Shown here: one piece after another, positions 16,458-55,362 of the stretch
Layout of the letters: every line of letters begins with the position of its first letter
Numbering within the stretch: the first letter of the stretch is position 1
DNA from: an uncultured Gammaproteobacteria bacterium
GTDB taxonomy: Bacteria; Patescibacteriota; Microgenomatia; CAYXHB01; CAZYTL01
Direction: 5' to 3'
Assembly (NCBI GenBank): GCA_964650355.1
Contig: CAZYTL010000006.1
Location: 11,019 to 75,018, forward strand
DNA: 64,000 nucleotides
Notes under the pieces: generated by a model
Databases searched by the model: none
Seen by the model: the letters and a program-made list of their open reading frames with translations, nothing else
What the model was told of the DNA's origin: nothing
Program-made: the position numbers and the translations under genes

Positions 16458-16495
16458 AGGAGATCCTATCGCTTCGCTCCAGGATGACGGAAACT
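16458..16495. repeat. dispersed repeat family A copy (GGAGATCCTATCGCTTCGCTCCAGGATGACGG)
   Basis: Read directly from the sequence, immediately downstream of the methyltransferase stop. The same about 33-nt motif recurs at 24892, 54995, 55196 and 55328. Confidence 0.55.
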
Positions 16496-16501
16496 ACGCA
16501 G

Positions 16502-17047
16502 CTACTTGATATAGAGATGCACCTCTCCCCTACTCTGTTGAGGCTGCCAATGAGGAAATTTAAAATAATTAGAGATGACGCGAGCGCCGGGTTTAAGTTC
16601 TTTTTGAAGTTTAGTTTCCAATTTTTTCATGATGTAAGTGGTACCGTAGACCGTAATGAGATCGTAAGAAGATAAATCTATAAGCCAGTAATTTTTAAAA
16701 TAAATAGTTGCTCGATCTGACACTCCGGCTTTAGCGATCTTTCTCCTGGCCTGCCAAACTAAGACGGGGTTAATTTCATAACCGTGAGCAGTGGCACCGG
16801 TTTTAGCCAAGGCAAGGACTACCCGACCATCACCTGACCCTAAATCAGCCGCCTTATCCCCTTTCTTGATCCGAGCCAGTTTGATCATTTGTTTCAGTTT
16901 TTGTCGCTTTGAACCTACGTATGGTGCACCAAAGAGCATAATTCCGCCAAAAATTAGGGTAAGTATGAGCCAGGCAACTACGGCGATTAAGACAAAGACC
17001 AGCAAGATGGAGATAATGATTAATAACCAATACATAAAAGGGGACAA
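16502..17047 (-). CDS. class I SAM-dependent methyltransferase with N-terminal TM helix
   Basis: Motif I (DLGSGDGRVVLALA) and downstream methyltransferase motifs. N-terminal hydrophobic segment. Confidence 0.65.
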   Translation of the reverse strand: MSPFMYWLLIIISILLVFVLIAVVAWLILTLIFGGIMLFGAPYVGSKRQKLKQMIKLARIKKGDKAADLGSGDGRVVLALAKTGATAHGYEINPVLVWQARRKIAKAGVSDRATIYFKNYWLIDLSSYDLITVYGTTYIMKKLETKLQKELKPGARVISNYFKFPHWQPQQSRGEVHLYIK

Positions 17048-17071
17048 TTAAGTCTAGAGAACAGACTGACT

Positions 17072-17860
17072 TTAATTGGCAGAATTATAATACTTTAGCG
17101 CTCGATGCCAGGTGAGATGAGCCAAGAACATGGTTACACAGGCGGCAAAAGGTACGACAAGCCAGAGCACGATAGGGGAGCGACGCATTAAAGTGAATAC
17201 AGGAATGGTGGTGATGATAATAGTAGGGAAGAGGACAGTGGCAAGGAGTTTGGCTAGACCGGAATAGACAGTGCTGGGGTATTGACCGTAAACCCAAGTG
17301 ATATTGAGTACGTTATTAGTAAAGCCGGACTTTTCACCATGCGGGGCAATCAGGAACAGATAAGTAAACCAGATGCCATAGAGTAATAAACTACTAATGG
17401 GAACGGCGATGAGCAAGAAAAGCAGAAGAGCTAAAGAACTTAAGACATTTAATTGATTAAAGAAGTAAAATGAGGCGATGAATCCGCCGATCAAGTCGGT
17501 GAAGGCAAACAAATTAGGTTTGTAAGTAGAAACTAACCAAAGATGATTCAGAGGTTTGATGAGCATGAAATCCATTTGATTGGTATTAAAAGCCTGATAA
17601 GCGATGAAATTAATATTGATCGAGCAAACAATCCAATACAGTCCTTTGACCGCGTGAAAGAAACTTAAAAAGGCCAGAAGTTCCGTTCTGGAATATTGAA
17701 GATTAAATCCGGTGATAATCACGTCCAGAAAAATATAACTGAGCAGGATATAAGCGGAGTGGGCGAGGAAGGAGAATAAAGCCCACAGAGGCTTGTAGGC
17801 CAGTTGATCCTGGACGGCAATATTGAGAAATTTGAGGTAGAGTTTAAGGTATTTGGTCAT
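17072..17860 (-). CDS. ABC-2 family transporter permease-like membrane protein
   Basis: Six hydrophobic segments. Composition and length resemble ABC-2 type permeases. Paralogous to 20318-21097. Confidence 0.45.
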   Translation of the reverse strand: MTKYLKLYLKFLNIAVQDQLAYKPLWALFSFLAHSAYILLSYIFLDVIITGFNLQYSRTELLAFLSFFHAVKGLYWIVCSININFIAYQAFNTNQMDFMLIKPLNHLWLVSTYKPNLFAFTDLIGGFIASFYFFNQLNVLSSLALLLFLLIAVPISSLLLYGIWFTYLFLIAPHGEKSGFTNNVLNITWVYGQYPSTVYSGLAKLLATVLFPTIIITTIPVFTLMRRSPIVLWLVVPFAACVTMFLAHLTWHRALKYYNSAN

Positions 17861-17886
17861 AAATTTTAAATTCGAAATTGGAGCGA

Positions 17887-18669
17887 TTACCCTCCTACTG
17901 CTTCATAAAGATAAAGCACTCGATTCCAGATATAACGACTAATGATGCTTAAAATGGCCAACCAAACAATTCCGTTAAGGAATACCGGGAGAAAGGTGAC
18001 GTTTTGATTAAATACGGCTTCAATAGGCACGGACACGATCCACCGAGTAGGTAAGATTCTGACCAGCCATTGATAATTGTCGGGTAAAAGCCATAAAGGG
18101 AGTTGAGCGCCAATTAAAAAGGGGAGCAAGATGTCAAATATTAAATATAGTGAATTAGGCCTGATCCACACAAAGGCAATACATCCAAGCAAAAAGCTGA
18201 TCAGCAACGAGATCGTCCAACCGATCACCACTAAAGGTAAGGCCATGATAATTTGGCTGAAGTTTAGAGGGAGTTGCAGCACAGTACCAAATTGCCAGCT
18301 GAGTAAATACAAAGCAATTAAATTAACAAATAAGTTAATCAGGCCGCTAGCCAAAATGTTGCATATGGTTATGCCTATATAGGGGAAAGGCTGGAGCAAA
18401 TATTGGGATAGTTCTCCCCGATGAATATCATGAGCCATGCGATGATAAAAACGCTCGCTAGCGAAGCCGCTAATGATGCCAGCAAGCACATAAAACTGCC
18501 ATAAATGTTGGAAAACATCCTGCGGGCGGAAGGCTTTCCACACGCTAAGGGTAAAAAGTAGAGAGATAAAATCTGAAGTTAGCCAAAGGATCAGGTCGGT
18601 GCGATGTTCAAAGATGATACTGAGACGCAATTGAAACGTGAGCCAGCCGACTCTGAAAAACCTAACCAT
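17887..18669 (-). CDS. ABC-2 family transporter permease-like membrane protein
   Basis: Polytopic membrane protein adjacent to 17072-17860. Paralogous to 21145-21996. Confidence 0.45.
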   Translation of the reverse strand: MVRFFRVGWLTFQLRLSIIFEHRTDLILWLTSDFISLLFTLSVWKAFRPQDVFQHLWQFYVLAGIISGFASERFYHRMAHDIHRGELSQYLLQPFPYIGITICNILASGLINLFVNLIALYLLSWQFGTVLQLPLNFSQIIMALPLVVIGWTISLLISFLLGCIAFVWIRPNSLYLIFDILLPFLIGAQLPLWLLPDNYQWLVRILPTRWIVSVPIEAVFNQNVTFLPVFLNGIVWLAILSIISRYIWNRVLYLYEAVGG

Positions 18670-18731
18670 TAGTTAGCAGTATAGCAAATTCACCCGTTTA
18701 TAAATTTCCAGAGCGATGATATACTTAATTT

Positions 18732-18995
18732 ATGGCAACGCAAAAAGAAAAGATAGAAAAAAAGCAACTAGAAGTAAAGGCTGACACCTTTACGGGTAGC
18801 CTATACTCCCAATTTGTGGGCGTAACAGTTACTGATTTAGACATTACCCTGGAGTTTGTATTTATCAATACCCGAACAGGGAAACACGGTGAGGTGGTTT
18901 CAAGAGTTACTTTGCCCAGACAAGCGGGTGAAGGATTAGCGAAAGTAATCATGGAGTTAATTGAAAAACATGACGCGCGTAAAAAGGAGGTATAA
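18732..18995 (+). CDS. DUF3467 family protein
   Basis: LYSQFVGVTVTDLDITLEFVFIN...VSRVTLPRQAGEGLAKVIMELIEKH matches the DUF3467 pattern. AGGAGG SD precedes the next gene. Confidence 0.5.
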   Translation: MATQKEKIEKKQLEVKADTFTGSLYSQFVGVTVTDLDITLEFVFINTRTGKHGEVVSRVTLPRQAGEGLAKVIMELIEKHDARKKEV

Positions 18996-18997
18996 AA

Positions 18998-19252
18998 ATG
19001 ACCTACACAATTCCTTATGAGGAGCTGATTGAAAGCACTCAAGAAAATTACAATTTAATAGATCAATTTCCATATTCAGCTAAGGTTGGTTATGTGAGTG
19101 CTATGCCTAATGATAAATACTCATTTATGGAAACCTTTACTTTTCCAGATTTGAACCAAATAGAACATTCTTTGACAGCCTCCGGCAAATATTCGAAAAA
19201 ACTGGTACGGGAAATTATTTCTGGTCTAAAAACCCTTCCGGAATATGATTAG
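18998..19252 (+). CDS. hypothetical protein (possible antitoxin partner of the downstream RelE-like toxin)
   Basis: 84-aa ORF located 18 nt upstream of a RelE/ParE-like toxin gene. No recognised fold. Confidence 0.35.
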   Translation: MTYTIPYEELIESTQENYNLIDQFPYSAKVGYVSAMPNDKYSFMETFTFPDLNQIEHSLTASGKYSKKLVREIISGLKTLPEYD

Positions 19253-19270
19253 GCCAAAGGCCTACATGAG

Positions 19271-19522
19271 ATGAATAACATTACAGCCAATGTTGAAATT
19301 ACAAATAATGCTAGACAGAAAGCCAGAAAATTCAACTTGAAAAAGAAGTTTAACAAGCAAGTTGGTTTTCTGGAGTCTAATCCGAGACATAACTCTCTAA
19401 ACTTCAAGCCCTTGGAATCAGCCCATGGCATATGGAGATTTAGGATCGATAAGCACTTCTGGGGCCTAGTGATAAAGACTTCAAATGGTTTAAGAGTATA
19501 CGATGTGATTAAACATCCTTGA
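19271..19522 (+). CDS. type II toxin-antitoxin toxin, RelE/ParE (StbE) family
   Basis: NPRHNSLNFKPLESAHGIWRFRIDKHFWGLVIKTSNGLRVYDVIKH matches the RelE/ParE pattern NPxxG..LkG...g.wr.RiGdyRiiY.i.dd...v..igHRkdvY. Confidence 0.6.
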   Translation: MNNITANVEITNNARQKARKFNLKKKFNKQVGFLESNPRHNSLNFKPLESAHGIWRFRIDKHFWGLVIKTSNGLRVYDVIKHP

Positions 19523-19547
19523 GACGAGGTCCCGTTACTGTTAATAA

Positions 19548-20303
19548 TCAATAAATTCGTTGATTTAATTGATAGAGTAGGGAAGTGAAGAAGAGTAAGT
19601 TGAGACAATGCTTCTTAAGTAGTCGCTGAGCTTCTTGGTAGCGAAGTTGAAGGTGATATTTTTGACTTAGGTTAAGGACTTGGCGGGCAGATTTCTGGGC
19701 CAGGGAATGGTTATTAGTGGCTAGATAATATTCGGCCAAGGTAAGTTGGGCATGGGTGAGCCAGATGTGGAGATACAATGAGTCTGACTGGTGTTGGGAT
19801 TCCCGGGTTAAAGTTTTGACGGCTTGGCGCAGTTCTTTTAAAGCCAAGGAGGATCGCTGTTGATTGGTATGTACTCCCCCTAAATAGCTTAAGGCATAAG
19901 CTGCCAAGGCCTGATTCTGCTGTTGCTGCGCCAAGCTTAGTGCTTGTTTGAACTTAGATTCGGCTAAAGAAAGGTTTTTTAAATCTTTGGCTGCCTGTCC
20001 GCAGTGAAGGATGGAGGAAACCTGACCTTCGCCAGTAGAATTAATCGAAGCCTTATCAAACAAGAAGTAGGCGATTTTTATTAAGAAGGTCTGTTGCCAA
20101 TGATGTTTATGATAGTTTTTAAAAGCAATTCCCAGGTGCCCGTAAGCGCCAGCCAACCCTTCCCGGTCACGGATCAGGGAATAGTAAATAATGCCGACCA
20201 GGAATACGGGCATGGACAAAAGCAGGCCCCAGTCTTTTTCTCTAATGGTTTCCCCGGTCAAAAGAAGTTTTCTTTGTTCGTGGGAAGTTAGTTTTTTAGT
20301 CAT
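19548..20303 (-). CDS. TPR-like helical repeat protein
   Basis: Helical repeat composition (AAYALSYLGGVHTNQQRSSLALKELRQAVK...). Positional paralog of 15507-16382. Confidence 0.45.
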   Translation of the reverse strand: MTKKLTSHEQRKLLLTGETIREKDWGLLLSMPVFLVGIIYYSLIRDREGLAGAYGHLGIAFKNYHKHHWQQTFLIKIAYFLFDKASINSTGEGQVSSILHCGQAAKDLKNLSLAESKFKQALSLAQQQQNQALAAYALSYLGGVHTNQQRSSLALKELRQAVKTLTRESQHQSDSLYLHIWLTHAQLTLAEYYLATNNHSLAQKSARQVLNLSQKYHLQLRYQEAQRLLKKHCLNLLFFTSLLYQLNQRIY

Positions 20304-20317
20304 AATTAATGGGACCG

Positions 20318-21097
20318 TTAGCTGCTGGCTGAGGCATATTGGGTAACGGCATAGCGCCAGTATTTAAGACTTAACAAGAGGGCGGCTAAGCCGATGAACA
20401 AAGAGCCAACAATCACATCCGGATGTGTGAGACCCAGGAGGGCTTTGGCAGGAATGGTCATCATGATACCCACGGGAATGACGGTGGTAAAGATGAGATT
20501 GATGGGCCAGCGGTACACGTCAATGGGGATTTTGCCTAAAGAGGTGACGTCACGGTAAATCATGACAGCGTGATCTACCTCAGTGGTAGTAATGCCCAGG
20601 CCGAGGACAAAGATGTGAAAGGCGGTGGCTAGAGTAAGTGCGTTGACGAGTAGTAAGAGAAAGATACCCAAATTCAACCAGGAAGTAGTTACCTGAGGGA
20701 TGATCCAGAGGGTGACGCCTATCAACGGGAGGAGGACGCTAAAGTCAAGGATGTCAATGCCACCGAGAAGGGAGCGGGCCAGGGCATTAAAAGGTTTAAG
20801 AAAGTAGTAGTCAAGTTCGCCGTTAACCACCCGAGAGCGGAAGCGGTACACATCGCGGAAGAGAAACTGGGAGCCGGTATCCACTAAGTTAAAGACCAGA
20901 AAGAAGAAGATGGTTTGGGTGACAGTATAGCCGGATAGGGTCTGAGTACGGGAAACCAGCAGATAAAGGAAGTAGATAAAGGTAATGATACGGGCCACTT
21001 TGCCAAAGATAAAGAGTACGGCGCCGTAACGGGAATAGAGAGCGCCGGAAATGGCTTGGGAATTGATGATCCAGAGGATTTTGAGATTACGGGACAT
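20318..21097 (-). CDS. ABC-2 family transporter permease-like membrane protein
   Basis: Polytopic membrane protein. Paralog of 17072-17860. Confidence 0.45.
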   Translation of the reverse strand: MSRNLKILWIINSQAISGALYSRYGAVLFIFGKVARIITFIYFLYLLVSRTQTLSGYTVTQTIFFFLVFNLVDTGSQFLFRDVYRFRSRVVNGELDYYFLKPFNALARSLLGGIDILDFSVLLPLIGVTLWIIPQVTTSWLNLGIFLLLLVNALTLATAFHIFVLGLGITTTEVDHAVMIYRDVTSLGKIPIDVYRWPINLIFTTVIPVGIMMTIPAKALLGLTHPDVIVGSLFIGLAALLLSLKYWRYAVTQYASASS

Positions 21098-21144
21098 AAG
21101 TTAAATTTCTAATCCGCCAGTTGGCGGACTAATTACTAAGGTAT

Positions 21145-21996
21145 TTACCTCCCGGCAGCTTCGTAGCGGCGGAGACCTAAATGCCAGACGATTTGCTGGC
21201 TAAGATAGGCGATGATCAACCAGGCGCTACCGACCAGGAGGCCGATGGCCACGTCGACCAATGGTAACTGTCCTAAATAGACTTTCATGGGGAAAAAGAG
21301 GATGTAAGGAAAAGGTAAATAGAGCAGGAATTTGGCAAAAAAAGCCGGCAGGATGTCGATAGGGAACAGGCCGCCGGCCAGAAAGTCCAACAGGATCCCA
21401 AACACGAATCTGGGGGCCCACCAGTCTTCGACTAACCAAAAGGCGGTAGAGCTAATGAGCAGATTGGCAAAAAAGTAGAGGGAGAGGGCAATGAGAATGC
21501 TAACGAAGGTGGCTAAAAGGTAAAGGGGATGGGTTTGGAAAGTTAAAGGCGGGCGAAAAAGCCAGACAATGGCTAGTACTTCCACGGAAGAGAAACCTAC
21601 GTTGATTAGTTTATCGCTGAGATCTTTGACAAATACATAGCGTAGATAACTAATAGGTTTGAGGAGCGTGTTGGTGAGGTTGCCGGTGACGATTTCTGCG
21701 CCCACGCCTTCACTCAGGTGGGCTGCTAAAATGTAAGACCTGATCAAGGAAATACCCAGAACATAAGTCATGATTTGGGCATGGGAATAGCCAAAGATAG
21801 TGGTGTGGTGTTGATAAACAGTGGTCCAAAGGAAAAAGAGGATGGCTAACTGGAGAACGGCCCGCACCCGCCAGAGGAAGAAGTTGAGCCGGTAAACCAA
21901 GTATTCTTGGAGAGTGGCTTGGATGAGCAGCCAGTACTTGCGCATAAGACAATGATCAACCAAATAGACTAATGACCAATGCATTAATTTTAGCAA
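21145..21996 (-). CDS. ABC-2 family transporter permease-like membrane protein
   Basis: LQEYLVYRLNFFLWRVRAVLQLAILFFLWTTVY is typical of ABC-2 permeases. Paralog of 17887-18669. Confidence 0.5.
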   Translation of the reverse strand: MLKLMHWSLVYLVDHCLMRKYWLLIQATLQEYLVYRLNFFLWRVRAVLQLAILFFLWTTVYQHHTTIFGYSHAQIMTYVLGISLIRSYILAAHLSEGVGAEIVTGNLTNTLLKPISYLRYVFVKDLSDKLINVGFSSVEVLAIVWLFRPPLTFQTHPLYLLATFVSILIALSLYFFANLLISSTAFWLVEDWWAPRFVFGILLDFLAGGLFPIDILPAFFAKFLLYLPFPYILFFPMKVYLGQLPLVDVAIGLLVGSAWLIIAYLSQQIVWHLGLRRYEAAGR

Positions 21997-22020
21997 ATAT
22001 TGAAAGGAGACGAAGGAGGT

Positions 22021-23016
22021 TTATATGCTAGTTGGTTTATTGGGGTGTTTGCGCTGCCACCAGCGGCGGCCAAAGATGAAGAGGAGAAGAGCTGGCACCC
22101 AGATGACAGCATAGACGGCCAGCCAAATGGCTTTAGCGGCCAGGTTTTGCAGGGTCTGTAAGAGAGAGCGGACTGCCAGTTTGAATACCACCGCAGGGCG
22201 GAAGGTTTCGGAAGGCGTGTAGGGCAAGGCGAGTTCGTCAGTAGACAGGTAGATGGTGAGTTTGGCCAGCTTGGCGGTTTGTTCCAGGTATTGTTGGCGG
22301 CCAATAAGGTTGTCGATCTGATCCTGAAGGTTAAGCACTTCTCTTTGCGCTTGAAGGATTTGGTCAAAGTTGGTGGCTTGATCCAGAAGTTGCTCAAATT
22401 TAGCCTGGGTTTTGCGCAGGCGGGAGATTCTGGTTTCCAGGTCCTGATACTGATCAGTCACGTCATGGCCGTAAAGGTTTTCAGAGGAGACTTTGATGGA
22501 TAGGGAGCGATAGTATTCTAAGGTTTGGTCTAAGGTCTCTGAAGGCACCCTAACTACCACGGTGGCAAAGGGGGCGTCTTCCGGTTGGTTGAGGGTGCTG
22601 GAAACCATATAACCGCCGGATTGAGAAGCGTAGGTGATGATTTGGTTGACTGTTTGTCTGACATTGTTAACGACCAAAGACAAATAGGACTCCTGGACGA
22701 CCATCCGGTTGGAAACGTCCGTGGTGGGAGGGGCTTCGGCTGGAGCAGGAACACGAGGAAGGGAAAGGCCTGAAGTTTTGGCGTTTGTAGGCATGCTTAA
22801 GCCGGCTGATTCGCCCATGGCCATGTCGCTGGTGTAGGAGGGGAACGTTGCCTGGCGGGAAAGATTAGAAACGGAAATGCCGAAGAAAGAGTTAATGAAG
22901 GAACGGCCAAATAAAAAGACAATCACCAAAATTAAGAAGCTGGCCAGTTTGTTACGCTTGATCCAAGAGATGATACTCATTAAGTTTAATTTAGGCGAAA
23001 AGGAGGGGTAAGTCAA
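22021..23016 (-). CDS. DUF4349 domain protein (TM - coiled coil - TM)
   Basis: N-terminal TM segment, central DVTDQYQDLETRISRLRKTQAKFEQLL coiled-coil region, and a C-terminal TM segment. Confidence 0.5.
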   Translation of the reverse strand: MTYPSFSPKLNLMSIISWIKRNKLASFLILVIVFLFGRSFINSFFGISVSNLSRQATFPSYTSDMAMGESAGLSMPTNAKTSGLSLPRVPAPAEAPPTTDVSNRMVVQESYLSLVVNNVRQTVNQIITYASQSGGYMVSSTLNQPEDAPFATVVVRVPSETLDQTLEYYRSLSIKVSSENLYGHDVTDQYQDLETRISRLRKTQAKFEQLLDQATNFDQILQAQREVLNLQDQIDNLIGRQQYLEQTAKLAKLTIYLSTDELALPYTPSETFRPAVVFKLAVRSLLQTLQNLAAKAIWLAVYAVIWVPALLLFIFGRRWWQRKHPNKPTSI

Positions 23017-23058
23017 GTAGAGAGAGATAGGCTTTTAGAGGCGGGTTAAGTTAATTGA

Positions 23059-25059
23059 TTGCGAAGATTATATTGTAAAACGGATGATAAATGGCTAATG
23101 AAAAGTGGTGTCCTAACCGCATATAATAGAGATATGAAACTGGAGGAATTGGAACAGTTAAGTAAGTTGATGCGCTATTGGGTGTTGAAGATGACTACTG
23201 AATCCGGGTCCGGACACCCGACCAGTTGTTTATCTAGCGTGGAATTGATGATAGGGTTGATGTTCGGGGGTTTCTTTAGATTCAAGATTCAAGATTCAAG
23301 ATTCGAGAATAATGACAGGTTGATTTTTTCCAAGGGACATGCGGCGCCGTTGTTGTATGCCTTGTGGGCCGGAGCGAAGGATAGCTCGATTACAGAACAG
23401 GATTTAATGAGTCTAAGAAAATTTGACAGTCCGTTGGAAGGGCATCCCACGCGGCGGTTTGCTTATACCGAAGTGGCCACCGGATCCTTGGGGCAAGGTT
23501 TGTCTGTGGGAGTAGGCATGGCTTTGAATGCCAAGCTGAACAAGTTACCTTACCGCACCTTTGTGTTGCTGGGGGACAGCGAGATGGCGGAAGGGTCGAA
23601 TTGGGAAGCGATTCAACTGGCTAAACATTACAAATTAGACAATTTGATGGGGATCATTGACGTGAACCGCCTGGGCCAGAGAGGACAAACCATGTACGGG
23701 CACGATGTGGTGGCTTACAAACGGAGGTTAAAAGGGTTTGGCTGGCAAACGTACACGGTTGACGGGCATGACCTGGAGCAGATTTTAAGTGTTTATAAGC
23801 AGGCGATGAAGATTAAAGGTCGGCCGGTGATGGTGATTGCGAAGACGGTTAAGGGCAAGGGAGTGTCATTTTTGGAAGATAAGAACGGTTGGCACGGCAA
23901 AGCGCTGTCAAAAACAGAATTGGATCAGGCGATGAAGGAATTGGGTGAAGTGAATACGGAAATCAGAGGAATATTGATGAAGCCCGAAGAAGTTGAACAG
24001 TCCAAGAAGCAAAAAAAGGCGGTAGTTGAGGTGGATGATGATTATGGTCAGCCTCTGGCTACCCGGAAGGCTTACGGGCACGCGCTGGTAAAACTGGCTC
24101 CGGCTTACCCCCAAATGGTGGTACTGGACGCGGAAGTGAGCAATTCAACTTACAGTCAGGAGTTTAAGCAGGCTTATCCGCAACGATTTTTGGAGATGTT
24201 TATTGCCGAACAAAACATGGTAGGTACAGCAGTGGGTTTGGCTTTGCGAGGCAAGATTCCCATGGTGTCCACGTTCGCAGCGTTTTTTACCAGGGCGGTG
24301 GATCAGATCCGGGTGGCCCAATATTCTGAAGTAAACGTGAATTTTGTGGGGTCACACGGTGGAGTGTCGATAGGGGAAGACGGGCCTACCCAGATGGGAT
24401 TGGAGGATTTGTCTATTTTCAGGTCTATCCTGGGGAGCACGGTGTTGTACGCAGCGGATCATGTATCTGAAGAGCAGCTGGTGAAGGCAATGATTGAGCA
24501 GCCGGGAATTTGTTATATGCGCACCACCAGGATGGATACGCCGTCTTTGTATCAGCCGGATGAGGAATTTAAGATCGGAGGCAGCATGGTAGTGAAACAA
24601 AGCAAAGAAGACCAGGTGACGGTGATGGGGGCGGGGGTGACGTTGTATGAGGCTTTGAAGGCTTACGAGGAGTTGCTAAAGGAAGGGATCAAGGTGCGGG
24701 TGATTGATTTGTATTCGATCAAGCCTTTGGACGTGGAAACCTTGAAGAAGGCGGCTGAAGAGACCAAAGCTATGATCACGGTTGAAGATCACTTTGCTGA
24801 GGGAGGAATGGGAGAGGCGGTGGCGAGTGGGTTACGTCATCCTGGAGGGACTCCGATGTTACAGCGGAGGACCGATAGGATCTCATCCCAAGGGGATTCT
24901 ATCGCTTCGCTCCAGAATGACGGACGTTATCCGATTTACTCCCTGGCGGTGCGCAAGATGCCAAGAAGCGGCAAACCGGAAGAGTTATTAGCTTATGAAG
25001 AGATCGACTCTGGAGCGATTGTGAAGAAGGTAAAGGAGATAATAAAGAGTGAGATTTAA
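23059..25059 (+). CDS. tkt: transketolase, single-chain fusion of the short-form N- and C-terminal subunits
   Basis: - TPP-binding N-terminal domain (SGHPTSCLSSVELM...FSKGHAAPLLYA...GSLGQGLSVGVGMA).
- C-terminal domain (VEDHFAEGGMGEAVAS...SGKPEELL).
- A more likely start is the ATG at 23134 (MKLEELEQ).
- It contains an (AGATTCA)3 microsatellite and an in-frame family-A repeat copy. Confidence 0.85.
   Translation: MRRLYCKTDDKWLMKSGVLTAYNRDMKLEELEQLSKLMRYWVLKMTTESGSGHPTSCLSSVELMIGLMFGGFFRFKIQDSRFENNDRLIFSKGHAAPLLYALWAGAKDSSITEQDLMSLRKFDSPLEGHPTRRFAYTEVATGSLGQGLSVGVGMALNAKLNKLPYRTFVLLGDSEMAEGSNWEAIQLAKHYKLDNLMGIIDVNRLGQRGQTMYGHDVVAYKRRLKGFGWQTYTVDGHDLEQILSVYKQAMKIKGRPVMVIAKTVKGKGVSFLEDKNGWHGKALSKTELDQAMKELGEVNTEIRGILMKPEEVEQSKKQKKAVVEVDDDYGQPLATRKAYGHALVKLAPAYPQMVVLDAEVSNSTYSQEFKQAYPQRFLEMFIAEQNMVGTAVGLALRGKIPMVSTFAAFFTRAVDQIRVAQYSEVNVNFVGSHGGVSIGEDGPTQMGLEDLSIFRSILGSTVLYAADHVSEEQLVKAMIEQPGICYMRTTRMDTPSLYQPDEEFKIGGSMVVKQSKEDQVTVMGAGVTLYEALKAYEELLKEGIKVRVIDLYSIKPLDVETLKKAAEETKAMITVEDHFAEGGMGEAVASGLRHPGGTPMLQRRTDRISSQGDSIASLQNDGRYPIYSLAVRKMPRSGKPEELLAYEEIDSGAIVKKVKEIIKSEI
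24870..24925. repeat. dispersed repeat family A copy inside the tkt coding sequence (CGATAGGATC...GGGGATTCTATCGCTTCGCTCCAGAATGACGG)
   Basis: Read directly from the sequence. It is in frame and encodes ...DRISSQGDSIASLQNDGR... within an unusually long linker before the conserved C-terminal SGKPEEL motif. Confidence 0.55.
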
Positions 25060-25764: not shown

Positions 25765-26277
25765 TTGGTATATAATCCAGGTATGGGGATTTATTTGAGT
25801 CGAAAGTATGTGGAGTGGATTGACGTGGTGAAGGTGCTGCAGAAATGCTCGGTGGTGAATAGTGAAGGGAAGATTCTGGCTGTGAAACGCAGGAGTGGAG
25901 CTCATGTGCGGCCGAATAAGTGGGATTTGCCCGGAGGTAACCTAGACCCGGAAGACATTGCCAACCGAAGTTTTAAAAGCGGGAAAGGTGATGATGATGA
26001 TATTTTGGTTCAGGCAGTGAAGAGGGAGGTGCAAGAAGAGACAGGTCTGAAAGCGGCCAAGGGATCGATGAAGTCGATTCATGCGGCGTCGGGGTTTGAC
26101 GAGAACAAGAAGTTATTGGCGATCGGGATCGGTTATCAGTGCAGAGTCACAGATTCTAAGGTGAAGTTAAGCAAAGAGCACCAAGATTTCAAATGGGTGA
26201 CGAAGGAGGAGTTTTTGCAACTGGATGTGGGTGATGACGGAGGATTGATTAAGGGGATTGTGGAGAAGGTGAAGTGA
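25765..26277 (+). CDS. NUDIX hydrolase
   Basis: Nudix box GG-x5-E-x7-REVQEETGL. Confidence 0.75.
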   Translation: MVYNPGMGIYLSRKYVEWIDVVKVLQKCSVVNSEGKILAVKRRSGAHVRPNKWDLPGGNLDPEDIANRSFKSGKGDDDDILVQAVKREVQEETGLKAAKGSMKSIHAASGFDENKKLLAIGIGYQCRVTDSKVKLSKEHQDFKWVTKEEFLQLDVGDDGGLIKGIVEKVK

Positions 26278-26347: not shown

Positions 26348-27139
26348 TTGCGGATCAGCAAAGATTTAAGTATGATTAATTTAGGGAACGATGGTATGAA
26401 AAACTTGCTGCGGAGGTTTATTTATCCCAATATAATCTGGTGGCCATTAATAGCTATATTCGTGGGTTGGTTTTATAAATCTGGTTGGTCTTTGTATTGG
26501 GGAGGACCCTGGTTAAGATCTTTATTTAGATTTTTTTATTATCCGTTTGTGTTTTTGCCTAAATCTTTTTTTATAGGAGGACGTGATATTTTTGACTTTA
26601 AAATACCTCAAATAATAGGGGCATTTTTAGTTGTCATGTTAACTGCAGTCGGATGGGGATGGTTGGTGAGGACTTTAGTAAAGAGATTGAAATTAAAAGA
26701 GATTCTTTTCTTACCTATAACAGTGATTCTTTTATGCGGATTAGGTTTGATAGGTCATTGGAGTTATATGAATAACTGTGTGGCTAATTACGAAAATAAC
26801 TCTGCTTACCTACACCATACAGGGTTAGTCCATTTTGTGTTTAGTTCTCAGGGTATTTCGTCAACAATGGCTGATTATTTCTATCAAATGAATAATATGG
26901 AGTATATTTCCGGCAAACCTGATTATACAAGAATTATCGCCAAAGTTACTCCGGGTACAGAATTCAAAACGATATGCAAGATTAAGGCCTATGATCGAAT
27001 ATCTGAGGTGACCAGGCCGTTAATTGTCGAGGACGTGATTTTTGGTCCCAATCAAGACATTAGAGAGAATCTAGACTCTAGCTTCTGTGACACCGGGCAA
27101 ATTGAAAAGAATCAATGTCTGGAGTATTTGAATAGATAA
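26348..27139 (+). CDS. hypothetical integral membrane protein
   Basis: Several hydrophobic helices. AT-rich gene with no recognised family. Confidence 0.45.
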   Translation: MRISKDLSMINLGNDGMKNLLRRFIYPNIIWWPLIAIFVGWFYKSGWSLYWGGPWLRSLFRFFYYPFVFLPKSFFIGGRDIFDFKIPQIIGAFLVVMLTAVGWGWLVRTLVKRLKLKEILFLPITVILLCGLGLIGHWSYMNNCVANYENNSAYLHHTGLVHFVFSSQGISSTMADYFYQMNNMEYISGKPDYTRIIAKVTPGTEFKTICKIKAYDRISEVTRPLIVEDVIFGPNQDIRENLDSSFCDTGQIEKNQCLEYLNR

Positions 27140-27238
27140 GTTGTTTCTATCAGAGGAATTTGCGAATTGAACTTGAGAGATGGAGGATTGATTAAAGAGA
27201 TTGTGGAGAAGGTGATGATCGTTAAGATGGCCCAAAAA

Positions 27239-40006: not shown

Positions 40007-40076
40007 AACACGTAGCATGTAACACGTAGCACGTAACAATTTGTTCCAGGTTACGTGTTAGGTGTTACTTGACTCT

Positions 40077-50124: not shown

Positions 50125-50499
50125 AGTTGTTTGTTTTTGTTTACGACCTATAGTCTACATTATGGAAGAAGATTTGTCAACTTTTAATTTGTTTCAGATT
50201 TAGATTTGATGTTTTAAGGAAAAATTAATAGTTGACAGGGGAGAAGAAATACAGCATATTAGGGAATTGAAAAGACTTCTTCTGCCCGATGCTTCTTTTC
50301 ACAAGTTTGTACCGATGACACTGATCGGGATCAGCGCAGACGGTATCAATTTTTGTTTATACATAATTAAGGTAATTTACTTCACTGGCCGCAATCGGAG
50401 GTGATTGTCTGGAATTAGGAATTATGAATTAGGGGATAGTTGTTGATTGATTCATGATTCTTGATTCATAATTTCATAATTCTTTTTTCGACTTTTATG

Positions 50500-51921
50500 A
50501 ATTCGAGATTCAGACTCATCAGCAGCGTGCTAGTGATCGGGGTAATCATCGCAGCAGTTTTGGGCGCAAGCAGCGCCTTTTTTAGTGACAAAGAAACGAG
50601 TCCTGACAACACGCTGGTGGCCGGAGCAGTGGATTTGAAGATTGATAACACGAGTTATTACAACGGAGAACCTTCTCCGGACACGAGTTGGACTTTGAAT
50701 GATTTGACGGATCAGTTGTTTTTTAATTTCTTGGACGTGAAGCCAGGGGACAGGGGAGAGGACACGATTTCTTTGCATGTGGATGACAATGACGCCTGGG
50801 CGTGCATGAATGTGGAGTTGACCAAGGATGATGACGCGACTTGTACTGAACCGGAACAAATAGATGATCCCACGTGTGATGAACCGGATGAGCCGGAAGA
50901 TTTGTGGGACGGAGAACTGGGAGGGTTGATTAATTTTATTTTCTGGGGTGATGACGGAGACAATGTGTTGGAGCAAGACGAAACTGATTTGGTATTTAAG
51001 GAAGGCACGGCGTCAGCGGTGCTGGCCAATGGGGTATGGAAGCTGGCTGATTCAACAGGCAATATCTGGGATGAGTTTCAGCATCCTCTGCAGGGAGGCA
51101 AGGATTATTACATTGGCAAGGCCTGGTGTTTGGGCCAGCTGACTGAAGCGCCTCTGGAGCAAGACGGCAAAGGGGCGGATAGCGACAGAACACCCGCGAA
51201 TTCCACAGGCGGAGTGCTTTGTGACGGGTCAGGATTGAACAACGCGGCGCAGTCTGATATTTTGATGGCCAATATCGGGTTTTCTGCGATTCAGTCCAGG
51301 CACAACCCGGACTTTACCTGCGGGGAAAACGGGGGAGAGCCGTGCTTTAAGAAGGCTGATTTGATGTTGGTATTGGATCGGTCAGGCAGCATCAATGATA
51401 CAGAATTGGCAACGTTGAAGACGGCGGCCAAAGCGTTTGTGGATGCGCTGGCATTGTCTGCTAATGGCCCGCATGCCGGGGAGGTGAGTTTTGCGACCAC
51501 GGCCAATCTGGACCAGCACTTGACTGATAATCCGGCATCAGTGAAGGCGGTGATTGACGCTCTGGTGCACAACGGGTTTACTGATTTGAAAGACGCGCTT
51601 GATCTGGCTACCGGAGAGCTGGCCAATCCGGGAGACTTACATGACAGACCTGACCTTGAATCACCTGATTATATTATTTTGATTACTGATGGGAATCCGA
51701 ACCGGCCAGACCCGAACACAGCAGTGGCTGAGGGAAGTGCGGCGGCGACCGCGGCTAAGAATGCAGGGATCACGATTTATGTGGTAGGAGTGGGAAGTGA
51801 TGTGGACACGGCTTATTTGCGGGATGATATTGCCACCGACCCGGCGCACTATTTCGCAGCAAATGATTTTGGAGATTTGTCAACGATCCTGGCAACGATA
51901 GCCCAGTGCCCGAATGAATAG
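50500..51921 (+). CDS. TasA/camelysin-like protein with SipW-cognate signal peptide and C-terminal vWA domain
   Basis: The N-terminus (MNSRFRLISSVLVIGVIIAAVLGASSAFFSDKETSPDNTLVAGAVDLKIDN) matches the SipW-cognate signal class. The C-terminal MIDAS motif (VLDRSGSINDTE...ILITDGNPN...IYVVGVGSD) indicates a vWA domain. The start at 50500 is chosen over 50461 by comparison with the two paralogs. Confidence 0.7.
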   Translation, partial: NSRFRLISSVLVIGVIIAAVLGASSAFFSDKETSPDNTLVAGAVDLKIDNTSYYNGEPSPDTSWTLNDLTDQLFFNFLDVKPGDRGEDTISLHVDDNDAWACMNVELTKDDDATCTEPEQIDDPTCDEPDEPEDLWDGELGGLINFIFWGDDGDNVLEQDETDLVFKEGTASAVLANGVWKLADSTGNIWDEFQHPLQGGKDYYIGKAWCLGQLTEAPLEQDGKGADSDRTPANSTGGVLCDGSGLNNAAQSDILMANIGFSAIQSRHNPDFTCGENGGEPCFKKADLMLVLDRSGSINDTELATLKTAAKAFVDALALSANGPHAGEVSFATTANLDQHLTDNPASVKAVIDALVHNGFTDLKDALDLATGELANPGDLHDRPDLESPDYIILITDGNPNRPDPNTAVAEGSAAATAAKNAGITIYVVGVGSDVDTAYLRDDIATDPAHYFAANDFGDLSTILATIAQCPNE

Positions 51922-51932
51922 AGAATCGTTGT

Positions 51933-51960
51933 GCGTTTCGACGTTTCACGTTTCAACGTT
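51933..51960. repeat. GAAACG/CGTTTC-heptamer repeat block flanking the four-helix-bundle gene (left)
   Basis: gcgtttcgacgtttcacgtttcaacgtt. A direct copy is at 52350-52379 and an inverted copy at 52390-52431. Confidence 0.5.
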
Positions 51961-51987
51961 GGTGGTTTTTGTGTTTAAAAGTTATTT

Positions 51988-52305
51988 ATGTCTAGTTCGT
52001 ATCAAGAATTGGATGTGTGGAAGCTTGGTGTAGAACTAGCAGTGTTGGTATATAGAGTAACCAGTCAATTTCCTCAACATGAATTGTACGGCCTCACCAG
52101 TCAAATGCGCAGAGCCTCGGTAGCCGTGGCTTCGAACATTGCGGAAGGTCAAGGCCGGGGATCGAGGAAGGAATTTCGACAATTTTTAAGGATTGCATTT
52201 GGTTCGCTTTTAGAATTAGAAACTCAAGTCGTAATAGCTGAAAGAATTGGATATTTAAATCAAGCTGAGAAGGATAAAATTTTGGAGATGAGCTTGAGGG
52301 TTTAG
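51988..52305 (+). CDS. four-helix-bundle protein (23S rRNA intervening-sequence protein/Avd-like family)
   Basis: ELDVWKLGVELAVLVYRVTSQFPQHELYGLTSQMRRASVAVASNIAEG...EFRQFLRIAFGSLLELETQVVIAER is the family signature. Confidence 0.75.
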   Translation: MSSSYQELDVWKLGVELAVLVYRVTSQFPQHELYGLTSQMRRASVAVASNIAEGQGRGSRKEFRQFLRIAFGSLLELETQVVIAERIGYLNQAEKDKILEMSLRV

Positions 52306-52348
52306 CAAATGATTTTTAAGTTAGAAAAATCTTTAATAAAGTAAAGTA

Positions 52349-52433
52349 AGCGTTGCACGTTTCTCGTTTTTCGTTTCGGCATTCGATCGCGAAACTTAAC
52401 GATGAAACGTTGAAACGAGAAACGCGAAACGTT
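52349..52433. repeat. right-hand direct + inverted GAAACG-type repeat block after the four-helix-bundle gene
   Basis: gcgttgcacgtttctcgtttttcgtttcgg followed by cgaaacttaacgatgaaacgttgaaacgagaaacgcgaaacg. Together they form a long imperfect hairpin. Confidence 0.5.
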
Positions 52434-52454
52434 TTAGAGAGGAGGTGAGAAAAA

Positions 52455-53327
52455 ATGCAAAAGAGAATTTTATTCAGTTTGATGATTATCGGCATTGTCG
52501 GAGCAGTAGTGTTCGGAGCCACCAGAGCGTTTTTCAGCGACACAGAAACGTCATATGATAATACTTTTGTGGCCGGAGATATTGACTTGCAAATTGACAA
52601 TGAAAGTTACGCCATTGACTACAACATCCCCCAGTATGACGGGACGCCGGTCGGCGCGTTGGTATTGAGCGGACTTACCTCATGGCCGATGGGGGATCTA
52701 GATCTTGAGAAGTTTTTCGACTTTAGAGACCTGAAGCCAGGGGACTACGGCGAAGATACCATTTCCGTGCACGTGGGCAGCAATAATGCCTGGTTGTGCG
52801 CCGCAGCGCAAATCACTGATGATTCAGACCAGACCTGTACAGAACCAGAGTTAGAGGATGATGCCAATTGTGCTGAACCCGGAGAAGGATTGGGCGAACT
52901 TGATGAAGGAGTCAATTTCGCTTTCTGGGTTGATGATGGGGACAACGTGCTTGAATCAGACGAAAAAGGATCGATCTTCCTTAACGGTCCGCTAAGCGGA
53001 TTAAGCGAAGCCGGGCAGATCGCACTGGCTGATTCAGAGCACAGCATCCTAGGCGGTAATGAACCTATTCCCGGAGGAACGACCTTTTATATCGGGAAAG
53101 CCTGGTGCTTTGGAAACCTAACCCCAGATCCAGTTGAACAAGGCGAAGGTGGTCCACTAGATCGGGAAACAACCGGATTTAACTGCGATGGTTCCCAAGT
53201 GAAAAATGCGGCCCAGACCGATCAGGTGGTGGGCGATTTGCAGTTCTACGCAGAACAGTCCCGCAACAATGGTCAATTCCTGTGCAGCAATTGGACGCCA
53301 AACTGGGAGCGGCCAGAAGAACCTTAG
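52455..53327 (+). CDS. TasA/camelysin-like protein with SipW-cognate signal peptide
   Basis: MQKRILFSLMIIGIVGAVVFGATRAFFSDTETSYDNTFVAGDIDLQIDN, and blocks shared with its paralogs (KPGDYGEDTISVHV, TCTEPE, YYIGKAWCFG). A GGAGG SD is present. Confidence 0.7.
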   Translation: MQKRILFSLMIIGIVGAVVFGATRAFFSDTETSYDNTFVAGDIDLQIDNESYAIDYNIPQYDGTPVGALVLSGLTSWPMGDLDLEKFFDFRDLKPGDYGEDTISVHVGSNNAWLCAAAQITDDSDQTCTEPELEDDANCAEPGEGLGELDEGVNFAFWVDDGDNVLESDEKGSIFLNGPLSGLSEAGQIALADSEHSILGGNEPIPGGTTFYIGKAWCFGNLTPDPVEQGEGGPLDRETTGFNCDGSQVKNAAQTDQVVGDLQFYAEQSRNNGQFLCSNWTPNWERPEEP

Positions 53328-53450
53328 GACTAACCTAGAACCTGAGTGTCTACCGAGCTCTCCTGTCCGATCTGAAGATCAGAGCCGGAGATTCGGTGGG
53401 CAGTCAGAGGTGCGAAGTGTAAGGCTTCGCGCTTGTGACTGCCCCTCCAA
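53322..53450 (+). repeat. repeat family B copy (CCTTAG.AACCT...CCGAGCTCTCCTGTCC...GCCGGAGATTCGGTGGGCA)
   Basis: Read directly from the sequence. A second copy is at 55430-55545. Confidence 0.4.
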
Positions 53451-53503
53451 AATGTTTCCAGGTTTTTATTAGCTGTTATCTGCTCGGAAGGAGGTGTATG
53501 TAA

Positions 53504-54889
53504 ATGAAAAAGGTGCTTTATAGTATAATGTTGATCGGGATTGTAGGAACTGTAGTTTACGCAGCCACCAATGCCTTTTTCAGCGATACGGAAACTTCGG
53601 TCGGGAATACGTTCGAAGCCGGAGCCATTGATTTGCAGATTGATAATGAGAGCTGGTATAACGGTGAGCCGCGCGAGGATTTATCCTGGGATTTAAGAGA
53701 TTTGACGATTGAAAAGTTCTTTGATTACGCGGATTTGAAACCCGGAGATTGGGGCGAAGATACAGTGAGTCTGCACGTGACCAGCAACCCGGCTTACGCG
53801 TGTGTAGCTTTCCGGATTACGGAAAACAGTGACAACGGGATTACTGAGCCTGAAGACGAAGTTGACGGCAATATTGACCAGGCTGACGGCACGGCTGACG
53901 GTGATCTGGCCCAAGAACTGCATTTCGCTTTCTGGGTAGATGACGGAGACAACGTGCTGGAAGACAATGAGGTTGAATCGCTGGTGGGAGGCCAGGCGGC
54001 TGATGTGTTTGAACAAGGCATATATGCTTTGGCTGATTCCCAGGGCGGGTTGTTTGAAGAAGCGTTGCAGCCGGAAACCGATTATTACATTGGCAAGGCC
54101 TGGTGTTACGGAGACATGAGTCCGGAGCCGGTACCAGCCGGACAAAGCGAGGATCCAAGTGTGGCATCAGGAATTACCTGTAACGGGCAGCCGGTGAGTA
54201 ATATTTCCCAGACAGACAAGTTGGTGGGGGATATTCAGTTCTACGCGGTGCAGACCAGGCACAATGAAGAGTTCCTGTGTAGCAGGGATTATGAACCTAC
54301 ATGGCCAAGACAAATCACGTCAACTACTGGTGACGGCTGGGCAAGCGTGGGTGGAGATTTCACCGAAGCTTGGCAAGCCGACGGTCGCTGGGGTGACGGA
54401 GGGACTTCCAATGCAGAAAATGAAGTTCGTGTTGGACTGGCTGGCGGTGGAAGCCCACAAGCTCAACACCAGAGCGATAACTCTACCGGCCCTTGGAGAA
54501 ATGGGGTAACTGAAAGCTTTACTCTCACCTATGACGGTGGGACTGAAGCAGCCTTGACTATCGGTGATACCACGGCAGATACCACAGTTGACTTACCTTT
54601 GGGTGATGTTCCCGGTGCTAACGGAAAAATCGGGATTACAGTCAAGACTTACGTGGATGATACCGAAGTTAAAGTTGAAAACGTAAAACTTGACGGGATG
54701 TCTCCAGTAGGTCCTGACAGCGTTAGCGAATCAGTCAATGGATCAAAAGAATACCTGGTCATCAGTGGCCTGACAGAGTTGTCTGACGGGTTCACTTTGA
54801 CAGGTGATTTGACATTCACTTGGGGCGGAACAACGCCTTCCTCAGCAGAGGATATGTCCATGCTCATCCAAGTGGAAAATGCGCCTTAG
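53504..54889 (+). CDS. TasA/camelysin-like protein with SipW-cognate signal peptide and extra C-terminal domain
   Basis: MKKVLYSIMLIGIVGTVVYAATNAFFSDTETSVGNTFEAGAIDLQIDN and shared paralog blocks. About 170 aa of additional C-terminal sequence. Confidence 0.7.
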   Translation: MKKVLYSIMLIGIVGTVVYAATNAFFSDTETSVGNTFEAGAIDLQIDNESWYNGEPREDLSWDLRDLTIEKFFDYADLKPGDWGEDTVSLHVTSNPAYACVAFRITENSDNGITEPEDEVDGNIDQADGTADGDLAQELHFAFWVDDGDNVLEDNEVESLVGGQAADVFEQGIYALADSQGGLFEEALQPETDYYIGKAWCYGDMSPEPVPAGQSEDPSVASGITCNGQPVSNISQTDKLVGDIQFYAVQTRHNEEFLCSRDYEPTWPRQITSTTGDGWASVGGDFTEAWQADGRWGDGGTSNAENEVRVGLAGGGSPQAQHQSDNSTGPWRNGVTESFTLTYDGGTEAALTIGDTTADTTVDLPLGDVPGANGKIGITVKTYVDDTEVKVENVKLDGMSPVGPDSVSESVNGSKEYLVISGLTELSDGFTLTGDLTFTWGGTTPSSAEDMSMLIQVENAP

Positions 54890-54923
54890 TTTTGAGACTA
54901 AGTCTGCCCAATTTAACTTGGAG

Positions 54924-54986
54924 GTTGCCAAGTCTTTGGAGGCTTGGCAATCTGCCGCAGTCCCGAAGGGAATCGGGGTTGCGGCA
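54924..54986 (+). terminator. two consecutive hairpins (TTGCCAAG-N10-CTTGGCAA; CTGCCGCA-N20-TGCGGCAG) after the third TasA-like gene
   Basis: Perfect 8-bp stems read directly from the sequence, 35 nt after the stop. Confidence 0.4.
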
Positions 54987-54994
54987 GGTTAGTT

Positions 54995-55037
54995 AGAGAT
55001 CCTTCGATCCACCAAATGGCGGACTCAGGATGACATG
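54995..55037. repeat. repeat family A, degenerate copy (GAGATCCTTCGATCC...GGACTCAGGATGACATG)
   Basis: Read directly from the sequence. Confidence 0.4.
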
Positions 55038-55182
55038 AATTAATATTAAATTGAGGAATGTCAATTTCCGCAAATTTACCGCGGAATTACCGCAGCCTAG
55101 TGGGTGGGCTGTCAAAGCCTTGATTGAACGTAGGTCTTGTCATTCTGGAACAAGCCAGGTGCCAGAAGATACCTGGCGCAGT

Positions 55183-55245
55183 GATAGAATCTCGGAGATC
55201 CTATCGGCCCGATAAGAATCGGACCTCCAGGATGACGGAAGGCGT
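55183..55245. repeat. repeat family A copy with internal expansion (GATAGAATC..GGAGATCCTATCGGCCCGATAAGAATCGGACCTCCAGGATGACGGAAGGCGTCAT)
   Basis: Read directly from the sequence. Contains ATGACG/CGTCAT and ATCGG/CCGAT inverted repeats. Confidence 0.5.
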
Positions 55246-55327
55246 CATGTTAATCAGGGTTTTGACAGCTTAACTACATGATAAATGTGATTTGGAGTTG
55301 TGTACTTTGAGGCTAATTTAGCCTTAA

Positions 55328-55362
55328 GGGGATCCTATCGCTACGCTCCAGGATGACGGGGG
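55328..55362. repeat. repeat family A copy (GGGGATCCTATCGCTACGCTCCAGGATGACGGGGGG)
   Basis: Read directly from the sequence. Confidence 0.5.

Follow-up and report, generated by a model that had tools for sequence, protein, structure and literature searches.

The closest described counterparts of the repeat reported here are the recognition sites of the Ssn nucleases. In Neisseria, the NTS (CGTCATTCCCGCGMAVGCGGGAATCYRG) is an extended form of the dRS3 repeat, and the NTS and related hairpins named SRM flank ssnA, whose product is a 94-aa protein with a single GIY-YIG domain (Chenal et al. 2025, PMC11893778). SsnA binds the folded hairpin of one strand only, as single-stranded DNA (ssDNA) and not as RNA, and cuts a few nucleotides upstream of it; cleavage is sensitive to the three bases that precede the palindrome, and binding is most sensitive to the C that directly follows it (PMC11893778). 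The Ssn system has been described mostly from Pseudomonadati, and 2% of the NTS copies in N. meningitidis are intragenic (Chenal et al. 2025, PMC11893778); no paper on Ssn later than this one was found in the literature. The NTS/SRM repeats overlap with the "CGTC-tagged" repetitive extragenic palindromes (REPs), which feature an unpaired CGTC, TGTC or CCTC tag, a stem starting with AT and a 3-nt tail, and which form inverted dimers, often heterodimers, as well as intragenic units (Di Nocera et al. 2013, PMC3733652). Their members include dRS3 of Neisseria and the palindromic elements RPE-4 and RPE-6 of Rickettsia, the latter two documented inside genes; the four families have an uninterrupted stem of 8-9 bp with a loop of 4-5 nt and are mostly alphaproteobacterial, and no transposase had been associated with them as of 2013 (Di Nocera et al. 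2013, PMC3733652). Here, a dispersed hairpin repeat, hereafter called the arm, is described from 64,000 nt of contig CAZYTL010000006.1 (assembly GCA_964650355.1, labelled uncultured Gammaproteobacteria; this whole stretch is hereafter the window), where one inverted pair of arms lies in frame in the transketolase gene tkt. The arms are probably ssDNA hairpin elements of the CGTC/TGTC-tagged REP superfamily, of the same class as the NTS/SRM recognition sites of Ssn nucleases.

The number of copies in the window is far above chance, in agreement with a first-pass annotation that had claimed a dispersed repeat family. The 32-mer GGRGATCCTATCGCTTCGCTCCAGGATGACGG occurs at 16459-16490 without mismatch, at 24892-24923 with two mismatches and at 55328-55359 with one, and shuffled sequence gave no match; the terminal 14-mer CTCCAGGATGACGG, allowing up to two mismatches, has six matches against 0.25 expected. 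A regular-expression scan found exactly seven hairpin arms, namely three singlets and two inverted doublets, and a covariance model (R1) built from minimal arms returned the same seven. Run with filters off, the covariance model showed no other significant arm in the window, and none was found by it in the 8.4 kb of the same contig to the left of the window. Every window arm carries a CGTC or TGTC tag. The doublets are ~90-100 nt long, and their left halves run GTCATYCTGGAG...GATAGRATC.

The first singlet lies at 16460-16489 on the minus strand (52.6 bits, E=5e-13), with the tag strand reading CGTCATCCTGGAGCGAAGCGATAGGATCTC. The 32-mer match here starts at 16459, one position away from the start first given (16458), and, as had been proposed, the arm follows a methyltransferase gene: the stop codon of the methyltransferase-domain open reading frame (ORF) 16502-17047(-) is 12 nt away on its 5' side, and the TPR ORF 15507-16382(-) follows on its 3' side (neighbouring ORFs by Pfam). 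The doublet in tkt consists of a left arm of the C/G flavour at 24835-24884 (+; 32.8 bits, E=3.7e-6), which reads CGTC-ATCCT-GGAG-GGA-[CTCCG..CGGAG hairpin]-GACC-GAT-AGGAT-C, and a right arm of the T/A flavour at 24893-24922 (-; 52.8 bits, E=4e-13) with the minimal inner hairpin GCGAAGC. The remaining arms cluster near 55 kb at three sites after the camelysin/TasA-like ORFs, as first noted. The first site holds a singlet of a sister type at 54996-55035 (-; 18.8 bits, E=0.004 for the window alone), GATCCTTCG-[hairpin]-CTCAGGATGAC, that is TGTC-ATCCT-GAG-[TCCGCC..GGTGGA hairpin]-TCGA-AGGAT-C. The second is an intergenic doublet with a T/A left arm at 55138-55193 (+; 31.3 bits, E=1e-5), containing a 34-nt inner hairpin, and a C/G right arm at 55195-55237 (-; 24.4-33.3 bits), in which an 18-nt inner hairpin, CCGAT..ATCGG, replaces the GCTTCGC of the short copies. 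The third is a singlet with the triloop GTA at 55329-55358 (-; 50.5 bits, E=2e-12), CGTCATCCTGGAGCGTAGCGATAGGATCCC. The starts given at first pass for the copies at 24892 and 55328 are those of the 32-mer matches; the copy near 55196 is real but has the 18-nt inner hairpin, and the copy near 54995, present as reported, is a sister variant rather than a degenerate one. The inverted half-sites noted at 24870 and 55183 are indeed inverted, yet each is part of a complete left arm (24835-24884 and 55138-55193), and the window therefore holds seven arms.

An independent assembly supports these copies. In run SRR14802573, Logan contigs match window 15848-24861 and 50349-64000 with 100% identity and reproduce the junction of tkt with the left arm (contig L123) as well as the 55-kb cluster and the 16460 arm; the 55329-55358 arm is 100% identical in contig L120. 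These contigs (L120-L124) end at window positions 24861, 27523 and ~37414-37426, the first of which lies inside the tkt doublet, a break expected of a repeat.

The anatomy of the arm was derived from 223 arms, drawn from the window and from loci with an exact match to the 27-mer GATYCTATCGCTNCGCTCCAGRATGAC. Read on the tag strand, the consensus is YGTC-AT[Y]CT-GGA-[GCGNAGC or longer hairpin]-GAT-AG[R]AT-C-Y. An unpaired YGTC tag precedes a 5-bp outer stem (AT[Y]CT/AG[R]AT), and a conserved C stands directly 3' of the palindrome. Between the outer and inner stems, GGA faces GAT, giving a conserved G.T pair that closes the outer stem and, next to it, two tandem G.A mismatches. The sequence of the inner segment is free to change, but the hairpin is kept, as in GGCC-GAA-GGCC, CCCGCCG-AAT-CGGCGGG and GTCCCGAC-CTGC-GTCGGGAC, with a stem of 2-9 bp and a loop mostly of 3 nt. 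In minimal arms it is GCGNAGC, with a GNA triloop in which N is A in 74, T in 26, C in 21 and G in 14 copies. As an oligonucleotide, d(GCGNAGC) forms a DNA mini-hairpin of unusual stability. The Y/R pair of the outer stem covaries within the 223 arms, with 138 T..A, 82 C..G and three T..G combinations and no C..A, and relaxing the anchor revealed further compensated outer stems (ATGCT/AGCAT, ACCCT/AGGGT, ACTCT/AGAGT and ACTCC/GGAGT). In the alignment made by the model, 99.5% of the cells are paired and three pairs show two-sided changes; none of 500 shuffles reached the observed covariation score.

The bases flanking the stem are conserved as well. All 58 distinct minimal arms carry GTCAT preceded by T, C or A, and once by G, and in general GTC is preceded by T or C, at times by A and almost never by G. 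Among 135 copies retrieved solely through the internal motif, and thus unselected for their flanks, positions -5 to -1 are G in 109, T in 103, C in 106, A in 103 and T in 108; the C directly 3' of the palindrome is present in 108 and the next base is Y in 111. The conserved tag and 3' C correspond to the bases that Chenal et al. identified as critical for cleavage and binding by SsnA.

The organization of the doublets identifies the single arm as the functional unit. About 36 of 38 doublets are heterodimers of one C/G arm and one T/A arm, so that pairing is perfect within each arm and includes a mismatch and a wobble between arms. A cross-arm hairpin (cruciform) was considered as the conserved structure and rejected, since the two arms of a doublet nearly always differ at the covarying pair. 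The palindromic unit suggested by the first-pass annotation is accordingly right as to the inverted doublets and wrong as to the functional unit, which is one arm and not the 90-nt palindrome. The doublets do resemble miniature inverted-repeat transposable elements (MITEs), which are likewise short, non-coding and dispersed. As a classical MITE, the repeat would derive from a DDE transposon and be moved by a transposase acting in trans on the terminal inverted repeats, with duplication of the target site. The ~90-nt doublets with inverted termini GTCATYCTGGAG...CTCCAGRATGAC and their folding into long hairpins (z -3.8 to -4.8) would suit such an origin. However, none of 38 doublets is flanked by a direct repeat of at least 2 nt, which argues against a classical MITE and largely refutes it; half of the copies are single arms, pairing is kept within arms while the arms of a doublet differ systematically, and clustering of all ORFs in ~825 kb of arm-containing loci placed no transposase family near the arms. 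A MITE origin is therefore considered very unlikely.

The likeness to the Ssn recognition sites is much closer. Like the SRM/NTS repeats, with their unpaired HGTC tag and a palindrome starting with AT, the arms begin YGTC-AT; they share the C directly after the palindrome (the 108 of 135 unselected copies above), and both are directional hairpins of 20-50 nt with many dispersed copies. The purine mismatches and the GNA triloop all lie on the YGTCAT tag strand, which, by analogy with SsnA, fits strand-specific recognition. Because the tag, the AT start, the 3' C, the directionality and a repeat-gene-repeat layout are common to both, the arms are filed in the SRM/NTS class, where the ATYCT arms form a divergent subfamily within a kind of element already known, not a new kind. 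They differ in several respects: the stem of the arm is interrupted (5 bp, G.T, tandem G.A and then the inner hairpin, which has a GNA triloop), the arms are hosted by Patescibacteria, Fibrobacter, Clostridia and Bacteroidales instead of mainly Pseudomonadati, and ~22% of the arms lie in long ORFs versus 2% for the NTS in N. meningitidis. With the CGTC REPs, the arms share the unpaired CGTC/TGTC tag, the AT stem start, the short 3' tail, the inverted dimers that are often heterodimers, and in-frame units inside housekeeping genes; they differ in their bipartite stem, variable inner hairpin, predominant triloop and very different host range.

The repeat-gene-repeat layout emerged from the clustering of ORFs in the ~825 kb of arm loci. 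One small family recurred beside the arms, a single-domain GIY-YIG protein of ~90-100 aa (Pfam PF01541). Arms lie within 150 nt of both ends of six of the seven complete GIY-YIG genes in these related loci (L020, L035, L053, L087, L109 and L111), compared with 51 of all 2875 ORFs (1.8%), which parallels the NTS-ssnA-NTS arrangement. In L087 and L053, the arms that flank the GIY-YIG gene are of the covarying variant GTC-ATTTC...GAAAT-C. The same clustering bears on mobilization by a Y1 HUH transposase (RAYT/TnpA-REP, kin of IS200/IS605), which would read the hairpin together with a 5' guide tetranucleotide. GTAG REPs and REPINs follow the same logic of a tagged hairpin in singlets and inverted doublets, with in-frame intragenic copies, a REPtron-like layout of repeats around an enzyme gene, ssDNA chemistry and no target duplication. 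Their tag is GT[AG]G rather than YGTC, though, and their enzyme is HUH/Y1 rather than GIY-YIG; no Y1 family, and no transposase family of any kind, was among the ORF clusters recurrent near arms in these ~825 kb, the only recurrent arm-flanked small gene family being GIY-YIG, and Di Nocera et al. found no transposase with the CGTC REPs (PMC3733652). Mobilization by a RAYT is accordingly judged quite unlikely.

The window itself contains one small single-domain GIY-YIG gene, which is Ssn-like and encodes 89 aa (1616-1885, minus strand; found by tblastn; Pfam PF01541, E=9e-12). Five hairpins with a TTATT tag, at 1553(+), 1922(-), 3480(+), 3566(-) and 3581(+), bracket this gene and a G+C-rich segment within 1548-3650. 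The enclosed 1.5-kb segment has 58% G+C, compared with ~40-49% in most of the window, and contains the ORF 2124-3119, whose 331-aa product has an N-terminus resembling a signal peptide and no Pfam match. Like the 54996 arm, the TTATT-tag hairpins contain the internal loop GAG...TCGA. The cluster looks like a repeat-nuclease-repeat unit with cargo. Its GIY-YIG protein might serve the ATYCT arms as their nuclease, but the cognate gene may equally lie elsewhere in the genome.

Several observations weigh against placing the arms among the Ssn recognition sites. The published SRM search motif, HGTCWYN(0-2)YYVSBRHN(0-5)WNVSBRGN(0-2)RNCYNB, matches none of 233 arms and none in the window, and the canonical NTS used as a control does match; nor do the arms have the uninterrupted 8-9 bp stem and 4-5 nt loop of the CGTC REPs. 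The arm-flanked GIY-YIG proteins are placed at the level of Pfam PF01541, no specific NCBIfam model was found for them, and the only GIY-YIG gene of the window is flanked by the TTATT-tag hairpins instead of ATYCT arms. The orientation of singlets relative to GC skew, a proxy for the replication strand, is unbiased (60 vs 56). In folding, the doublets are stable, but single minimal arms do not exceed shuffles with nearest-neighbour DNA parameters (z ~+0.5 to +1), and hence the structural case rests on covariation. The Y/R covariation, in turn, could partly reflect two faithfully copied sublineages.

An RNA-level role has to be weighed for the same hairpins, which could mainly act as 3' stem-loops that stabilize or terminate transcripts, or as another structured RNA. 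The 16460 arm, 12 nt past a stop codon and on the transcribed strand, forms a hairpin followed by CTCCTTTTGG, and the conserved G.T pair at the end of the outer stem would be compatible with RNA; Di Nocera et al. argue that transcription of REPs is common and that G.T pairs are tolerated in them (PMC3733652). On the other hand, Rfam 15 gave no match at the gathering threshold in the 64-kb window, and at E up to 10 only a spurious match to a long non-coding RNA at 54900-55450; a tRNA scan of the window found nothing. Moreover, copies are found on either strand with respect to genes and also within coding regions, the tandem G.A pairs and the GNA triloop stay on one strand regardless of the direction of transcription, and SsnA binds ssDNA rather than RNA (Chenal et al. 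2025, PMC11893778). A mainly RNA-based function is thus unlikely, and an RNA role could exist alongside a DNA role. Where the repeat had first been described as REP/MITE-like or as a conserved RNA or protein-binding motif, the REP-like nature holds and protein binding would too, by analogy with SsnA, whereas neither a classical MITE nor a curated RNA family is found.

The insertion into transketolase places an arm pair within a conserved gene. The tkt gene (23059-25059, plus strand; likely start ATG 23098) matches Pfam Transketolase_N, Transket_pyr and Transketolase_C and encodes a human-type transketolase. It was aligned with its 119 closest homologues, which are 59-65% identical and ~610 aa long. 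In 116 of them, a 6-residue loop without any insert lies between GEAVxSxL and [IV][YH]SLAV, where the window protein has 33 residues (RHPGGTPMLQRRTDRISSQGDSIASLQNDGRYP); two other homologues have unrelated insertions in the same loop. The Pfam Transketolase_C match ends at aa 594, just before the repeat element, and the alignment to human TKT splits between residues 581 and 584. The whole inverted doublet (24835-24922, without assigned strand) forms an in-frame insertion of ~27-29 codons (RHPGGTPMLQRRTDRISSQGDSIASLQNDG), in which the right arm reads DSIASLQND in the tkt frame; an example of the junction peptide is ISSQGDSIASLQNDGR. Judging from the alignment, the 27-29 codons were gained in this lineage and lie in a loop of the C-terminal domain that is tolerant of insertions. 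An open frame through the insert and 45 conserved C-terminal residues downstream of it suggest translation, presumably as a loop of 27-29 aa. The exact boundaries of the insert cannot be fixed, since the searched databases contain no empty site from a close relative, and no filled/empty pair of orthologous sites was found among 119 repeat loci.

These results agree with the proposal of the first-pass annotation that tkt tolerates an in-frame copy, and they also decide the alternative it had named, that the segment is ancestral protein sequence. In its wider form, this reading takes the segment either as old coding sequence or as a motif with a function in the protein (DSIASLQND), and its likeness to the intergenic repeats as secondary. 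One regularity would suit that alternative: intragenic single arms favour one sense frame (s0, 21 vs 4 in the other open sense frame), and in the sense orientation they mostly read DSIA[SAP]LQ[ND]D. A TGA closes one of the three sense frames, however, leaving just two open in any case. The same DNA occurs between genes and at unrelated positions in unrelated proteins, and its absence from 116 of the 119 nearest homologues refutes an ancestral segment for tkt; such an origin is barely credible. Elsewhere in tkt, tandem TCAAGAT heptamers followed by GAGAATAATGACAGG occupy 23275-23319 in the 5' part of the gene and encode ...FRFKIQDSRFENNDR...; the covariance model has a weak match at 23298-23317 (E=0.55), and a 31-mer at 30649-30679 is 77% similar to the heptamer stretch, which may be a second small insertion in tkt.

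The repeat is by no means confined to this genome. In a collection of species-representative genomes, the 27-mer occurs exactly in more than 119 loci (a lower bound, among the matches listed), often in several copies per genome and in some cases at contig ends. The taxon names given here are the labels of the metagenome-assembled genome records. They include Patescibacteria (Roizman-, Curtiss-, Levy-, Gottesman-, Woese- and Daviesbacteria, Saccharibacteria, Paceibacterota and WWE3), many Fibrobacter, Clostridia, Bacteroidales, Cloacimonadota, Anaerolinea and "uncultured Gammaproteobacteria". Judging from the loci with the repeat and from the nearest named homologues of tkt, the window itself probably belongs to Patescibacteria. 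The sole locus labelled as archaeal among the matches listed (L004, Candidatus Methanomethylophilaceae archaeon) has flanks (ttctaagctc...; aaagcgtggct-arm-agggtggttgc) that resemble Fibrobacter- and Bacteroidales-labelled loci such as L115 and L006, so that, judged by sequence, the contig is probably mis-binned. Carriage by phages was considered as a route across phyla and set aside, as 2.9 million viral contigs contained a single exact match. Full-text searches of the literature with the arm sequences gave chance primer matches only, and no literature on palindromic in-frame elements in Patescibacteria was found. Some Clostridia and Fibrobacter loci carry head-to-tail arrays of arms (L078 2922-3229, L017 327-394, L060 5540-5615 and L027 26-148, with periods of ~92, 38, 46 and 93 nt); the Fibrobacter arrays lie inside long ORFs, where the antisense reading is VILERSDRI, and no such array is seen in the window.

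About half of all copies are single arms, and ~50 of the 223 arms (~22%) lie inside open frames of at least 200 codons. Seven of eight arm-spanning ORFs that were checked are genuine conserved genes whose Pfam domain alignments bridge the insert; the hosts of in-frame arms are GatB, MnmA, PheT (in the tRNA-binding domain), a GT1 glycosyltransferase, QueA, PurD and an ATP-dependent DNA ligase. A parallel is found in Rickettsia, where palindromic elements lie in surface-exposed segments of conserved, essential proteins and are tolerated; Ogata et al. reportedly described such elements in frame in protein genes in 2000. The arms are alike by description, being palindromic repeats tolerated in frame in conserved essential proteins, whereas RPE-1 is longer (~100-150 bp) and is not known outside Rickettsia.

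The Ssn-class assignment suggests how the arms may work. By analogy with Neisseria, when DNA becomes single-stranded during replication, transformation or repair, a cognate Ssn-type nuclease would bind the folded arm and nick a few nucleotides 5' of the YGTC tag. Multiplication of the hairpins leaves no target-site duplication. One doublet may have landed in a permissive surface loop of transketolase and survived because it is stop-free and keeps the frame, a course that would parallel the Rickettsia elements. The arms may be either selfish or of service to the host, for example by restricting the integration of incoming ssDNA. As a tentative and rather doubtful extension, the subfamily together with a small GIY-YIG nuclease might be an autonomous selfish element able to cross phyla, and the Ssn-type nuclease the missing "transposase" of the CGTC REPs. 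The hairpins would then spread through ssDNA intermediates without target duplication, and their sequence would have been shaped to remain open in four of the six frames, allowing them to colonize essential genes where genomes are gene-dense, as in Patescibacteria; the crossing of phyla is suggested by exact 27-mers common to Patescibacteria, Fibrobacter, Clostridia and Bacteroidales.

Tagged REP hairpins, their in-frame copies and a GIY-YIG partner are already known in general. If the assignment is right, the reach of the Ssn/SRM system, characterized in 2025 mostly in Proteobacteria, would extend to Patescibacteria, Fibrobacter and gut anaerobes, and the published SRM search motif would miss a large subfamily with interrupted stems. 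The sequence CGTCATYCTGGAGCGNAGCGATAGRATC offers a defined candidate substrate for finding new ssDNA-specific nucleases. In small gene-dense genomes, the hairpins often lie in frame in essential enzymes (tkt, GatB, PheT, MnmA, QueA and PurD), which bears on how such repeats spread and has practical consequences: genes with arms show odd loops and broken domain matches in annotation, and contigs break at arms in assembly.

Other repeats were seen in the window. The three paralogous camelysin/TasA-like genes at 50461-54889, the first with a VWA domain, have the repeat families D1-D3 in common and are followed by LTD-domain and HemolysinCabind genes; a perfect 28-nt identity between them (51103-51130 and 54080-54107) suggests gene conversion. 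A 44-nt direct repeat, 80% identical and rich in ACGTAGCACGTAACA, occurs at two gene boundaries, at 40002-40045 adjoining ORF 39278-40039(-) and at 55993-56036 at the end of ORF 55650-56000(+); it may represent an operator or a promoter, or else a further family of small repeats. In addition, a 37-nt direct repeat, 92% identical, lies at 26236-26272, in the 3' end of ORF 25765-26277, and at 27179-27215, in the intergenic region just past ORF 26348-27139.

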